Source: Escherichia coli
GTDB lineage: Bacteria > Pseudomonadota > Gammaproteobacteria > Enterobacterales > Enterobacteriaceae
Length of the DNA stretch: 64,000 nt
Assembly: GCF_003790525.1 (NCBI RefSeq)
Contig: NZ_CP033635.1
Direction: 5' to 3' (one strand)
In this document: positions 17,012 to 37,322 of the stretch, piece by piece
How positions within the stretch are numbered: the first letter of the stretch is position 1
Layout: each line of letters opens with the position of its first letter
Made by a program: the position numbers and the translations under genes
Notes under the pieces: model-generated
The model's database searches: none
What the model was told of the DNA's origin: nothing
Seen by the model: only the letters and a program-made list of their open reading frames with translations

Positions 17012-17046
17012 CATTATTCTGCAGAACATGGAATTTTGACATTAAC

Positions 17047-17072
17047 GCCGGATGGAGATTAATCCATCCGGC
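17047..17072. terminator. Bidirectional stem-loop between hypT and the first island gene
   Basis: GCCGGATGGA - GATTAA - TCCATCCGGC perfect hairpin between two convergent genes. Confidence 0.5.
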
Positions 17073-17097
17073 AAACGCATTTATTATCTTGAATAAC

Positions 17098-18501
17098 TCA
17101 GGCCTTTGCTTCGTTGAAGCGCAGTAAACGGAAACCTGTAGAAGCATAGATCAACGCAAATATCATCGAGCAGAAACAGAATACACAGTACGGCAAGTAA
17201 CTAAACGTCGGCACGCCTAGTGTTGTCGCCATATACAATCCGGCAGCTGACCACGGAATAATTGGCGCGCTCATGGTGCCAAAATCTTCCAGCGTTCGGG
17301 CTAAGACTAACGGTGATAAATTAAGATCTTCGAATTTCTTCATCATCAATTCAGATATAACAATCTTATTCAAACCATCAGAACCGGTAAGTAAGTTAAT
17401 GATGATCGCTAAAACACCGCTTGCCAGAATAGCGCCAAAGGCACTTTTTATTTTGTTTGCCGCACTTTGTAATGTGACATCCATCATTCCTGTTCCCGTC
17501 AGGATGCCAGCAAACATCATGGCGCAGATAATAAATGACAGGAATCCGCCCTGATTATTCAGGCCGCCTTGTTCAAGCAGTTCTTTCACAGAAGGTAACA
17601 GCGTCGTTGAATCAGTGATCATCGTCAGACGGAAACCACTCATTGTGGCCTTAATACCTTCGGCCAGCGGGAAACCTTGATACAGCCATCCAACCAATAC
17701 GGCCACGAACGCACTGCTTAATAATGCCGGTACTGTAGGCAAACGCAAAAAGGTAAAGCACAGAACAATAAGCATAGGCAGTAGCGGTAACAGACCAAAC
17801 TTATATAACTCTTTGAGCTGTACCAGCATCTGCATGCTTTCTGGTGAAATAGAGCCCGTAGAAGTATGAATCATTCCCAGCCAGGTAAAAAACAGCAGGC
17901 TAATAATCGTTGATGGGATGGTCGTCCAGAGTAGATATTTAATCAGATCATAAAGTTTAGTTTTGGTTACCGCTGAAGTCAGGTTAGTGGTATCACTTAA
18001 CGGTGAAAGTTTGTCGCCAAAATAAGCCCCGGTAACAATGGCTGCCGCCAGAATTGGAAGATCGGCATGTAAGCCGGAACCGATGCCCATTAATGCAACA
18101 CCAATAGAAGCGACAGATCCCCATGATGCCCCGGAAACATAGGACAATACTGCGTTCAGAAAAAACGCTATAGCATAAAGCCATGCGGGCGCAACCAGTA
18201 ACATACCGTAATAAACCAGCATCGGCAGTGTACCTGCATAGCTCCATGTCGCGACCATAAAGCCAACGAAAATAACGATAAGTACCGGTGCCATCACCGC
18301 CGAAATCTTATCGATAATAAACCCCTGGATTTCATCCCAGGTATATTTCAGCTTAGCCATTGCAATAATGCAGGAAAACGCCGCTGAAATTAATAAACAG
18401 ACGCTGGCAGGCCAGCCCATAACACCGATGCCAACAACCAACACGATCATCATAAAAATGATCGGTGTAAGCGCGACATAAAAACTGGGTTTTTCTCTCA
18501 T
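17098..18501 (-). CDS. Polytopic membrane transporter, NhaC-like (Na+/H+ antiporter family) by composition
   Basis: 467 aa, about 12 hydrophobic spans; ATG 18501 with upstream AGGGA; lies 14 nt downstream of the FAD oxidoreductase gene on the same strand. Confidence 0.55.
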   Translation of the reverse strand: MREKPSFYVALTPIIFMMIVLVVGIGVMGWPASVCLLISAAFSCIIAMAKLKYTWDEIQGFIIDKISAVMAPVLIVIFVGFMVATWSYAGTLPMLVYYGMLLVAPAWLYAIAFFLNAVLSYVSGASWGSVASIGVALMGIGSGLHADLPILAAAIVTGAYFGDKLSPLSDTTNLTSAVTKTKLYDLIKYLLWTTIPSTIISLLFFTWLGMIHTSTGSISPESMQMLVQLKELYKFGLLPLLPMLIVLCFTFLRLPTVPALLSSAFVAVLVGWLYQGFPLAEGIKATMSGFRLTMITDSTTLLPSVKELLEQGGLNNQGGFLSFIICAMMFAGILTGTGMMDVTLQSAANKIKSAFGAILASGVLAIIINLLTGSDGLNKIVISELMMKKFEDLNLSPLVLARTLEDFGTMSAPIIPWSAAGLYMATTLGVPTFSYLPYCVFCFCSMIFALIYASTGFRLLRFNEAKA

Positions 18502-18515
18502 AACTTTATTCCCTG

Positions 18516-34890: not shown

Positions 34891-34893
34891 ATT

Positions 34894-37275
34894 ATGGTTG
34901 CCATTGTTATTGTTTCTCATAGTCTACGTCTCGCCCAGGGGGTTGAGGAATTAGCACTACAGATGTCTGGAGGGGACGTTCCTCTGGCCATTGCTGCAGG
35001 TATTGATGATCCGCAAAATCCGATTGGCACTGATGCTATTGCCATTATGTCTGCGATTGAATCGGTCTGGTCACCGGATGGCGTTCTGGTACTCATGGAT
35101 ATGGGCAGTGCGCTGCTTAGTACCGAGATGGCGCTGGAGCTGCTTTCTGAAGAGCAAAGAAGTGCAATTTATCTGCTCGCCGCCCCTGTAGTGGAAGGTG
35201 CCATGTCAGCGGTAACGTCTGCCGCAGCGGGGCTTTCGGTGACGGAGATTATCGCTGAAGTGGATCTTGCGCTGTGTGCTAAACAGCAGCAACTCACGCC
35301 ATCCTCAACTGCAGGCGAGGTTATTCCAGCAATATCACCAATCAATCATTCCGGTGAATGGCAAACTTTTTGCTGGACGATACGTAATCCCCACGGCATT
35401 CATGCTCGTCCGGCAGCCAGCATCCTGAAAGTATCCGCACAATATTCGGCAAACATTATCGTCATCAAAGGCGATAAACGCGCCAGCACCCGCAGTCTCA
35501 ACGAACTGGCAATGCTGGGCGTCCGCTGTGGCGATGAAATCATCTTCCAGGCCGAAGGCACCGATGCCAGTGACGCTCTCAAGGCAATTGAAACGTTGGC
35601 GAAAAATCATTTTGGTGAAGCTCACCTGCTCGCTTCTTCAGAGATTCCGCTAACGGAAACGCCGGTGGTCAGCGCCCCTGTCGATGGCGCAATATCAGGC
35701 TTGTCAGTACAAAATGGTATCGCTATTGGTCCTGTTAAATGGTTTACCTGCGAACGACCAGAAATTACGCAGCGCACCGTCGATTCTCCGCAAGAAGAGC
35801 TGTCGCGAATCGAGTCTGCTATCGACATTGTTGTTTGTGAACTTGCCGATAAAGCGGCAGGCCCTGAAGGCGATATTTTTGCCGCCCATAAAATGATGCT
35901 TGAAGATCCAAAGATTAACCGGCAATTACAGCAACGTCTGGCAAAGGGCAAACAGGCGGAATTCGCATGGTTAGAAGTCATGCAGGCATTAGCAGAGCAA
36001 TATTGTCAGGCGGAAACACTGTATTTACGTGAACGCGAGGCAGATATCCGTGACCTTACACGTCAGGTACTGAACCAGCTTTGCGGGGGAAGTGAACAAC
36101 ACTTTATTACTACCGCGCCCTGCATTTTGTTAGCCAACGATCTGTTGCCATCACAGATAACCAGCCTGAATAAAGCACACATTCTTGGCATTTGTCTTCA
36201 TAATGGCGGAACAACTTCACATACAGCGATCCTTGCCAGAGCAATGGGTATTCCTGCCATTGTGAAGGCAGCTATTACCCCGCAAAACGTCCGCGATAAC
36301 GACACGGTCATTCTTGATGGTGAAACAGGCCGTTTGTGGCTACAGCCGGATGAGGTCACCCGCCTGGATTTACTGCAACGCGCCGAAGCATGGCGGCAAC
36401 AAAGGGATCGTCAGTTAGCTGATGCCATGCAGCCCGCTGTCACGCAAGGTGGGCGAAAAATCAGCGTGCTGGCGAATATTGGTGACCTGCAAGATATTGA
36501 GGCTGCGCTATCTCACGGGGCTGAGGGCGTGGGTTTACTGCGCACAGAGTTTTTATTCCATGAGTCTGCAACATTACCCGATGAAGAAGAGCAGTTTCGC
36601 GTGTATTGTTCTGTTGCTCAGGCTTTTGGCGATAAACCAGTCACCATCCGCACTCTGGATATTGGCGGTGACAAGCCATTACCTTCGTACCCTTTACCCG
36701 CAGAGGACAACCCGTTCCTGGGACTTCGCGGTATCCGGTTGTGCCTGGCGCATCCGCAAATATTTATTCCGCAATTACGCGCACTTCTCCGGGCCGGGAA
36801 AGAATACCCAACGCTGCAAATTATGCTGCCGATGGTTTCAACGCTCGAGGAGGTCAACGCCGTCAAAACGCTGATACAAACGCAGGCAAAACTGCTGGGA
36901 CTTACTGCAGAAAATCTTCCGGCGCTGGGAATTATGATTGAGGTTCCTGCTGCAGTCATGATTGCAGAAAAATTAGCCAGTGAAGTCGATTTCTTTTCCA
37001 TCGGCACCAACGATCTGACGCAATATATTATGGCGGCAGACAGAGGAAATAGCACCGTCGCGGAACTGGTCGATTATCGTAATGACGCGGTGATTAACGC
37101 TATTGCTATGGTGTGTCAGGCCGGACGTAATAATGAAATTCCGGTCAGTATGTGCGGCGAAATGGCTGGAGATACCCAGCAAACAGCACGACTGCTCACC
37201 ATGGGGATTGATAAGCTCAGTGCCAGTCCGTCCCGGCTTCCGGCCTTGAAAGCAGCAATCAGAACCTCCCACTAA
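34894..37275 (+). CDS. DhaM-like multiphosphoryl transfer protein: EIIA(Man-like) + HPr-like + complete Enzyme I
   Basis: 793 aa; N-terminus MVAIVIVSHS ... AAGIDDPQNPIGTDA matches DhaM; HPr-like segment with GIHARPAA; EI phosphohistidine region GGTTSHTAILARAMGIPAIV and C-terminal PEP-utilising region ending FFSIGTNDLTQY. Confidence 0.85.
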   Translation: MVAIVIVSHSLRLAQGVEELALQMSGGDVPLAIAAGIDDPQNPIGTDAIAIMSAIESVWSPDGVLVLMDMGSALLSTEMALELLSEEQRSAIYLLAAPVVEGAMSAVTSAAAGLSVTEIIAEVDLALCAKQQQLTPSSTAGEVIPAISPINHSGEWQTFCWTIRNPHGIHARPAASILKVSAQYSANIIVIKGDKRASTRSLNELAMLGVRCGDEIIFQAEGTDASDALKAIETLAKNHFGEAHLLASSEIPLTETPVVSAPVDGAISGLSVQNGIAIGPVKWFTCERPEITQRTVDSPQEELSRIESAIDIVVCELADKAAGPEGDIFAAHKMMLEDPKINRQLQQRLAKGKQAEFAWLEVMQALAEQYCQAETLYLREREADIRDLTRQVLNQLCGGSEQHFITTAPCILLANDLLPSQITSLNKAHILGICLHNGGTTSHTAILARAMGIPAIVKAAITPQNVRDNDTVILDGETGRLWLQPDEVTRLDLLQRAEAWRQQRDRQLADAMQPAVTQGGRKISVLANIGDLQDIEAALSHGAEGVGLLRTEFLFHESATLPDEEEQFRVYCSVAQAFGDKPVTIRTLDIGGDKPLPSYPLPAEDNPFLGLRGIRLCLAHPQIFIPQLRALLRAGKEYPTLQIMLPMVSTLEEVNAVKTLIQTQAKLLGLTAENLPALGIMIEVPAAVMIAEKLASEVDFFSIGTNDLTQYIMAADRGNSTVAELVDYRNDAVINAIAMVCQAGRNNEIPVSMCGEMAGDTQQTARLLTMGIDKLSASPSRLPALKAAIRTSH

Positions 37276-37285
37276 TTGTGACCTA

Positions 37286-37312
37286 ACGCGATACGTCTTG
37301 CGCGTATCGCGT
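37286..37312. terminator. Bidirectional stem-loop between the dhaM-like gene and iraD
   Basis: ACGCGATACG ... CGTATCGCGT perfect 10 bp inverted repeat followed by TT. Confidence 0.5.
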
Positions 37313-37322
37313 TTCCCGTCAT

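Follow-up and report, generated by a model that had tools for sequence, protein, structure and literature searches.

Why do some Escherichia coli chromosomes carry a 20-kb block of metabolic genes between hypT and iraD, and what do its products act on? We examined the question in a 64-kb window, the whole stretch of DNA analyzed (contig NZ_CP033635.1), in which an earlier annotation, here called the original prediction, had described a 14-gene catabolic set lying between these two genes and having no obvious known substrate. The block is the GimA locus of E. coli, on an SMS-3-5-like chromosome. We assign a probability of about 0.8 to a reading with three parts: the block is GimA, GimA is an old accessory locus that has been lost by deletion, and its genes constitute one catabolic regulon under a DhaR-type regulator, the mechanism of which we infer.

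The flagged interval is 100% identical to the chromosome of E. coli SMS-3-5 (NC_010498.1), where RefSeq annotates ibeA; that gene name identifies the block as GimA, whose first description is credited to Huang et al. (2001). Homeier et al. (2010; PMC2878320) describe GimA as a 20.3-kb cluster of 46.2% GC between yjiD and yjiE, comprising the operons ptnIPKC, cglDTEC, gcxKRCI, and ibeRAT, with roles in substrate transport and carbon-source metabolism. The segment in the window measures 20,343 bp at 46.15% GC, matching the published size and composition. It is flanked by yjiD (iraD) and yjiE (hypT), contains ibeA within ibeRAT together with the ptn, cgl, and gcx operons, and occurs in the three population states of the published locus. 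Coordinates 4935926-4956234 of the avian pathogenic E. coli (APEC) strain O1, designated "PAI-APECO1-iraD (GimA)" in a 2020 review (PMC7545054), align over 100% of the GimA segment at 98.4% identity. Site, size, GC, gene order, and operons are the same as in GimA/PAI-iraD of RS218, APEC O1, UTI89, and LF82; the window holds the SMS-3-5 allele, to which only 26 genomes are at least 99% identical. GimA is a real block but an already known one: the papers of 2001 and 2010 had already presented the "invasion" gene ibeA, the borders, the gene list, and the absence of mobility genes. The view that it has no obvious known substrate stands, since we found none established in the literature searched (to 2026), but the locus is the published GimA, and one of its two FAD oxidoreductases is IbeA, a much-studied virulence-associated protein of extraintestinal pathogenic E. 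coli. SMS-3-5 itself is usually placed in phylogroup F. GimA was reported to be nearly confined to phylogroup B2 (PMC2878320).

The distribution of the block bears on its origin. Among 5,426 complete E. coli genomes, the whole block is present in 245, only a ~420-bp remnant of the last gene in 267, and nothing in 4914. The remnant, 2% of the block, corresponds to window positions 36902-37322 (+ strand). Inheritance of GimA in E. coli is all-or-none, as the predicted co-inheritance of the genes implied: none of 40 sampled rows was intermediate, and the whole-block rows sampled all had 100% coverage. The three states agree with those published, namely complete, pptE remnant, and absent (PMC2878320). 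The original prediction had the genes inserted between hypT and iraD, which is probably the wrong direction. Complete loci contain an 8-bp direct repeat, CTGCAGAA, at 17019-17026 and 36905-36912, and in the CFT073 remnant the hypT side is joined to ptnI at CTGCAGAA (L003 2494-2501), so that the remnant form looks like a 19.9-kb (19,886-bp) deletion between the two repeats. A GimA-like block lies at the same site in Escherichia albertii, abutting iadA-yjiG-yjiH; Citrobacter freundii has the GimA gene order amid different chromosomal neighbors; and Homeier et al. favor an ancestral locus that was later lost (PMC2878320). Loss from an old locus fits the E. albertii site, the remnant junction, the C. 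freundii gene order, and the Homeier argument better than recent insertion does. GimA is most likely a chromosomal accessory block without mobility functions, an old Escherichia locus that most lineages have lost by deletion.

Several local details accompany these comparisons. The final ~18 nt of hypT differ too in CFT073. The E. albertii block (L090 7386-10147) continues directly into iadA, with no hypT between ibeT and iadA. Strain XDL (NZ_CP043033.1 4307825-4329201) has ~1.07 kb of extra DNA, the size of an insertion sequence, in an otherwise identical GimA that aligns in two pieces. A plasmid or phage origin was considered and set aside; all 512 matches are chromosomal, with 0 plasmid copies.

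The prediction that mobility genes are lacking held: RefSeq annotates no transposase, integrase, or tRNA gene in the block or within 5 kb of it, and a repeat search at the island ends returned no convincing flanking direct or inverted repeats. The locus accordingly has none of the mobility genes, direct repeats, or tRNA site that mark the flanks of a classical pathogenicity or genomic island, and Homeier et al. conclude alike, having noted that GimA has neither mobility nor insertion elements within 10 kb, nor a tRNA or flanking direct repeats (PMC2878320). The GC content of GimA is 46.2% versus 47.4% for the remainder of the window, with individual operons ranging from 42% to 50%; the published chromosomal value is 50.8% (PMC2878320). 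Just past iraD, around yjiC (38000-39000), GC falls to 34%, below any part of GimA.

Junction alignment with K-12 and CFT073 places the GimA-specific segment at 17016-37358, where K-12 has instead ~33 bp of unrelated sequence. The left flanking gene is hypT (16100-17011, + strand) and the right is iraD (37323-37706, - strand). In the empty site of K-12, as predicted, the two are adjacent; they are convergent, with an 8-bp overlap of their 3' ends (L002 4379-4386). K-12 and the window are alike through TGACATT (the hypT stop codon and 4 nt), diverge there, and rejoin at CCAGACCAG inside iraD. The right border therefore falls not at the iraD stop codon but inside the gene, at its 3' end, and for this reason the last iraD codons differ between GimA-type strains and K-12: IraD, with a different C terminus (window 37323-37358), has 127 aa in GimA and remnant strains versus 130 aa in K-12. 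Two hairpins had been taken for terminators flanking the island. Both exist and form stable structures (about -21 kcal/mol, z about -5.4 to -6.6), one with a 10-bp stem at 17047-17072, 3' of ibeT and hypT, and the other at 37286-37312, after ptnI and retained in the remnant. They do not flank the island but lie within it, and an intrinsic-terminator scan identified no terminator at either, the T-run being absent.

Open reading frame (ORF) calls and RefSeq annotation both place 14 intact protein-coding genes between hypT and iraD, and their families, assigned with NCBIfam models mostly over curated cut-offs, agree with the labels first given to them. Gcl, Hyi, GlxR, the glycerate kinase subfamily, GldA, DhaK, DhaL, DhaM/Enzyme I, and DhaR all score above cut-off. 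On the left, ibeT (17098-18501, - strand) encodes an NhaC-family transporter related also to ArcD-type antiporters (TIGR00931, 379.9 bits, cut-off 370; nhaC in RefSeq), and ibeA (18516-19886, - strand) encodes a PF12831 flavin adenine dinucleotide (FAD)-dependent oxidoreductase, named IbeA in RefSeq. The product of ibeR (20173-22107, - strand) is a DhaR-family regulator of the enhancer-binding type (GAF/PAS-AAA+-HTH; NF008485, 985.8 bits, cut-off 551), and, as predicted, the gene is divergent from the gcl-like operon on the + strand. That operon comprises paralogs of gcl (gcxC, glyoxylate carboligase, 22501-24240; NF008431, 1075.8 bits, cut-off 791; 70% identity to K-12 Gcl), hyi (gcxI, hydroxypyruvate isomerase, 24253-25035; 388.5 bits, cut-off 353), glxR (gcxR, tartronate semialdehyde reductase, called 2-hydroxy-3-oxopropionate reductase in RefSeq, 25053-25940; TIGR01505, 382.5 bits, cut-off 340.75), and glxK (gcxK, glycerate kinase, 26015-27157; TIGR00045, 547.8 bits), all on the + strand. 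The Hyi paralog also passes a model for 2-oxo-tetronate isomerase (376.9 bits, cut-off 325); because it exceeds the cut-offs of both isomerase models, it may have a role in four-carbon acid-sugar metabolism.

The cgl operon lies on the - strand. It contains cglC (27213-28754), a BCCT-family transporter gene nearest to the CaiT model yet under its cut-off (NF002887, 391 bits, cut-off 541); cglE (29055-30419), a second PF12831 FAD oxidoreductase gene; cglT (30437-31705), encoding an MFS transporter weakly similar to organic-anion and organophosphate transporters in NCBIfam; and cglD (31773-32855), encoding a GldA-type glycerol dehydrogenase (NF006941, 558 bits, cut-off 336). As noted originally, the two paralogous FAD enzymes are each found beside transporters, IbeA next to ibeT and CglE next to cglT and cglC. 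Between cglE and the BCCT gene, at 28778-29002 (- strand), we found an unannotated 74-aa ORF with two hydrophobic helices, recognized by sequence conservation: it shares 71% identity with a 76-aa gene called at the equivalent position in C. freundii. This conserved predicted membrane ORF is new in this analysis and may be the "15th gene" counted in some papers. It is missing from the SMS-3-5 RefSeq annotation, where the locus_tag series skips RS24440. The + strand resumes with paralogs of dhaK (33175-34245; TIGR02363, 460.4 bits, cut-off 406; 59% identity to K-12 DhaK) and dhaL (34258-34890; TIGR02365 over cut-off; 55% identity to K-12 DhaL), followed by ptnI/pptE (34894-37275), which RefSeq calls "ptsP". 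Its 793-aa product joins DhaM (EIIA-Man) and HPr to a complete Enzyme I (NCBIfam stretches 2-123, 161-235, and 267-790), and its DhaM-type part exceeds the TIGR02364 cut-off, completing the DhaKLM set of a K-12-type regulon.

As had been proposed, GimA carries genuine second copies of the dha and gcl modules, since K-12-type dhaKLM is present in 5385 of the 5426 genomes and gcl-hyi-glxR in 5408. At 33-70% identity to their K-12 paralogs, the GimA proteins are old paralogs rather than recent duplicates. With the K-12 dhaR-dhaKLM system GimA shares DhaK, DhaL, a DhaM-type EIIA-HPr, a DhaR-family regulator that lacks a GAFTGA motif, and TGAAAC/GTTTCA half-sites in the control region. It differs in sequence (33-59% identity), in a phosphoryl donor with a complete Enzyme I, and in the position of the regulator gene, which is divergent from dhaK in K-12 and in GimA lies 11 kb from dhaK, beside ibeA and gcl. 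Unlike the K-12 dha system, the putative GimA regulon also takes in flavoenzymes, three transporters, and a glyoxylate module. The likeness to the gcl-hyi-glxR-...-glxK genes of the K-12 allantoin regulon extends to four enzyme families in the same order, at 48-70% identity, but the GimA genes are contiguous and stand under a DhaR-type control region. No allR, allA, or allB is annotated in the island, and its glyoxylate genes are not associated with an allantoin regulon.

A shared palindrome suggests how the operons are tied together. Repeat and pattern searches located TGAAACA-N16-TGTTTCA in the divergent ibeR/gcl control region (22353-22382, + strand) and TGAAACA-N15-TGTTTCA in the divergent cglD/dhaK control region (33049-33077, + strand); a pattern search added TGAAACA-N15-TCTTTCA, with one mismatch, in the ibeR-ibeA gap (20132-20160, + strand). 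Exact palindromes number three in the window versus 0.01 expected, and with up to one mismatch there are four in 64 kb, three of them within the intergenic DNA of GimA, 1.3 kb in all. The ibeR/gcl copy is kept in Citrobacter (L006 7521-7550). The K-12 dhaR-dhaK region has TGTTTCA-TAG-TGAAACA and TGAAACA-N14-TGTTCCA, and the Vibrio gldA-dhaK region has TGAAACA-N16-TGTTCCA. These patterns suggest that the palindrome is a DhaR-family operator and that one IbeR regulon spans all three GimA promoter regions, where we infer that IbeR binds. The third exact palindrome, TGAAACA-N17-TGTTTCA (63283-63313), lies far outside GimA in a 511-aa ORF (62439-63974, - strand) and is probably due to chance. Sigma-54-dependent control of GimA was rejected: TGGCAC-N5-TTGCW with up to two mismatches matched 42 times versus 43 expected, never in GimA intergenic DNA, leaving no -24/-12 promoters, and the GAFTGA motif is absent from both IbeR and K-12 DhaR.

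Gene neighborhoods in other bacteria link the same functions. IbeA has orthologs at 68-89% identity in Citrobacter, Pluralibacter, Serratia, Photobacterium, and Vibrio, and homologs at ~50% identity are common in marine bacteria and metagenome-assembled genomes (MAGs) among the matches listed; a contig scan for IbeA homologs gave mostly marine matches of 46-54% identity, with no Enterobacteria among those listed. The Vibrio jasicida cluster comprises genes for a BCCT transporter, three PF12831 enzymes, a cyclophilin-like protein, NhaC, and a PatB-like C-S lyase that E. coli GimA lacks, together with gldA, dhaK, dhaL, dhaM/EI (the Enzyme I fusion), a DhaR-like gene, and gcl. Pseudovibrio stylochi has a co-directional array of gcl-hyi-glxR-glycerate 2-kinase (non-orthologous)-gldA-dhaK-dhaL-dhaM/EI-FAD oxidoreductase-MFS, and an uncultured locus, L094, reads gldA-dhaKL-M/EI-BCCT-three PF12831 genes-gcl-hyi-glxR-glxK. 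Serratia sp. S1B has only MFS-gldA-dhaKL-M/EI-ibeA-nhaC, without the gcl module. The DhaM-HPr-Enzyme I architecture is the same in the Vibrio, Serratia, Pseudovibrio, and L094 clusters, and IbeA-type genes are linked to the dihydroxyacetone (DHA) module more consistently than to any other partner. The stable core is a transporter, a PF12831 enzyme, GldA, and an Enzyme I-fused DHA kinase, to which a glyoxylate- or glycine-consuming module is usually added.

BCCT and CglE-type pairs (54-58% and 68-78% identity) are conserved in Vibrio, Endozoicomonas, and Pseudovibrio. In Endozoicomonas the pair stands beside a class-V aminotransferase weakly similar to aspartate-glyoxylate and 2-aminoethylphosphonate transaminases, and at locus L093 it stands beside serine hydroxymethyltransferase (SHMT) and serine dehydratase. 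The linkage across Citrobacter, E. albertii, Vibrio, Serratia, and the alphaproteobacterium Pseudovibrio is new here, as is the shared palindrome; neither is reported in the literature searched, from which the first GimA paper of 2001 was absent. The marine GimA-like clusters repeatedly contain a third PF12831 paralog that is divergent, shorter (425-450 aa), and absent from E. coli GimA (L004 5038-6784; L094 10993-12658; L042 11384-12661; L093 4820-6097). In Vibrio (L004) and L094 a cyclophilin-like protein comes next to it, on its downstream side.

The flavoproteins would hold the key step. IbeA and CglE are paralogs of 51% identity, and both are full-length PF12831 proteins; residues 18-448 of IbeA align to positions 1-416 of the 416-position model (E=1.3e-93). 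The glycine/sarcosine-oxidase family DAO (PF01266) matches IbeA only at residues 19-50 (E=0.004), a 30-residue Rossmann motif, and by family assignment IbeA and CglE are not DAO members. A sequence search against Protein Data Bank (PDB) chains returned Rossmann-motif matches only and no IbeA entry. Foldseek comparison of the AlphaFold (AF2) model of IbeA (pLDDT, the predicted local confidence score, of 93) with the PDB gave only generic two-domain flavoprotein matches, all with template-modeling (TM) scores of at most 0.5: geranylgeranyl-reductase-like proteins, FixC, and aromatic hydroxylases ranked above sarcosine and glycine oxidases, and fumarate reductases were also listed. Glycine oxidase and SoxB scored TM 0.35-0.40. 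Sequence and modeled fold do not assign IbeA and CglE to a reaction class. In IbeA the Rossmann motif begins at residue 17, with the FAD-binding GxGxxG at residues 23-28, which leaves no room for a signal peptide, and none is present. This position agrees with reports, cited from Paris 2024 in PMC12940985, of IbeA as a homodimer that binds FAD, and fits badly with a role as surface invasin. We consider that IbeA, the best-known GimA product, has probably been mislabeled as an invasin.

Taken together, a catabolic regulon of the following form is proposed. IbeT (NhaC/ArcD-like), CglT (MFS), and CglC (BCCT, CaiT-like) would import one or several related compounds, and the cytoplasmic flavoproteins IbeA and CglE would perform the committing redox step. 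The products would enter glycolysis by two routes. A C3 unit would pass through the GldA-like dehydrogenase and DhaK/DhaL to dihydroxyacetone phosphate, with the DhaM-HPr-Enzyme I protein of the island as phosphoryl donor; because the island has its own donor, this route may not need the general proteins of the phosphotransferase system. A C2 unit, glyoxylate, would be converted by Gcl, possibly Hyi, GlxR, and GlxK to phosphoglycerate. K-12 DhaR is reportedly controlled by DhaK, as corepressor, and DhaL-ADP, as coactivator (Bachler et al., 2005). IbeR would likewise read the state of DhaK and DhaL and, at sigma-70 promoters, would act through the TGAAACA-N15/16-TGTTTCA palindrome of each of the three promoter regions.

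Several observations weigh against this regulon. No substrate, inducer, or enzyme activity of GimA is reported in the literature searched, and the mutant phenotypes published for ibeA, ibeR, and ibeT relate to invasion, hydrogen peroxide resistance, and fimbriation, not growth on a substrate. The palindrome is inexact in E. albertii, where it is symmetrically altered to TGAAACG...CGTTTCA; a pattern search did not match it in the Serratia or L094 intergenic regions; and the literature searched yielded no experimentally mapped DhaR operator for comparison. IbeR shares just 33% identity with K-12 DhaR and does not adjoin dhaK, which makes sensing of DhaK/DhaL an extrapolation. Finally, among the matches listed, most of the more distant PF12831 homologs (46-51% identity, marine) lack every GimA partner, so the linkage holds for one subclade only.

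Three other explanations draw on the same evidence. The original prediction, whose interpretation is partly supported overall, favored oxidation by IbeA and CglE of a C-N bond in N-carboxymethyl amines or betaine-type compounds taken up by the BCCT, MFS, and NhaC transporters, with release of glyoxylate to the Gcl module. The conserved BCCT and CglE-type pairs speak weakly for it; so does their adjacency to three unrelated consumers of glyoxylate or glycine (the Gcl pathway, the class-V aminotransferase, and SHMT with serine dehydratase), and class-III aminotransferases and a GMC choline-dehydrogenase-like enzyme occur among the neighbors of more distant homologs. Family and fold lend this chemistry no support: the enzymes belong to PF12831, with DAO and SoxA matching only the dinucleotide-binding motif, and Foldseek places other flavoproteins above sarcosine and glycine oxidase. 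The usual flavin amine-oxidase route, moreover, cannot dehydrogenate quaternary amines at nitrogen, and GldA/DhaKLM would be left unexplained; Serratia links an IbeA-type gene to that very module without gcl. We judge glyoxylate-releasing amine oxidation unlikely. A redox-balancing variant of the dha system would instead start from GldA and DhaKLM as the oxidative branch for glycerol or DHA, with IbeA and CglE as reductases that dump electrons on imported acceptors and CaiT- and ArcD-like antiporters that swap substrate for product, replacing the 1,3-propanediol branch that E. coli lacks. The DhaR-type regulator, GldA, and DhaKLM are indeed the most conserved core; the BCCT protein comes closest to the model for the carnitine/gamma-butyrobetaine antiporter, and IbeT has ArcD antiporters among its relatives; the homologs listed include some from strict anaerobes (such as Desulfobacteraceae, Anaerolineae, and Lokiarchaeota); and the fold matches include fumarate-reductase-type flavoproteins and FixC. 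But the glyoxylate module, which needs a source of glyoxylate, goes unexplained, no acceptor is known, the transporter matches involved are under their family cut-offs, and many of the homologs listed are from aerobic marine Rhodobacteraceae and Halieaceae. This explanation is, in our estimate, very improbable.

The literature is dominated by a third view, in which GimA is a virulence island, IbeA a surface invasin that binds vimentin, PSF, and Caspr1, and the metabolic genes accessory. Mutant and receptor studies favor it (summarized in PMC2878320, PMC12940985, and PMC13128420), and GimA is enriched in neonatal meningitis E. coli and APEC strains (Homeier 2010, PMC2878320). Against it, IbeA is a single PF12831 domain throughout, with its GxGxxG near the N terminus and no signal peptide, and according to Paris 2024, as cited in PMC12940985, it is an FAD-binding homodimer. 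Orthologs of 68-89% identity in Citrobacter, Pluralibacter, Serratia, and Vibrio, and homologs of ~50% in free-living marine bacteria and MAGs, likewise argue against this view, as do the lack of a tRNA site, flanking repeats, or mobility genes at GimA and a RefSeq record for SMS-3-5 that names no host or disease source. We give the invasin explanation very little credence and prefer the DhaR-type catabolic regulon.

What such a regulon would act on can be narrowed only tentatively. GimA and its Vibrio and Pseudovibrio relatives might form a DHA-sensing regulon for undescribed small compounds, carboxymethyl- or glyceryl-substituted onium compounds or amines, which IbeA and CglE would split into glycerol/DHA and glyoxylate parts; we regard this proposal as quite unlikely to be right as a whole. 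One candidate that may fit all three outputs is the deacylated head group of diacylglyceryl carboxyhydroxymethylcholine (DGCC), an algal betaine lipid. In this head group, glyoxylate forms an acetal with glycerol and choline. The fit arises because choline would suit the BCCT transporter, glycerol GldA/DhaKLM, and glyoxylate Gcl. The literature searched contains no description of bacterial breakdown of the DGCC head group and no report linking BCCT, Gcl, and DHA kinase.

If compounds of this kind were the substrates, the "invasin" IbeA would be a catabolic enzyme and the virulence phenotypes metabolic side effects. GimA is not important as a discovery; it has some value as a 25-year-old substrate problem, in which the best-known product of the locus has been treated as an invasin though it is a cytoplasmic-type flavoenzyme. 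The shared palindrome, which would tie four operons to IbeR, and the recurrent set of enzymes and transporters could make that problem testable.

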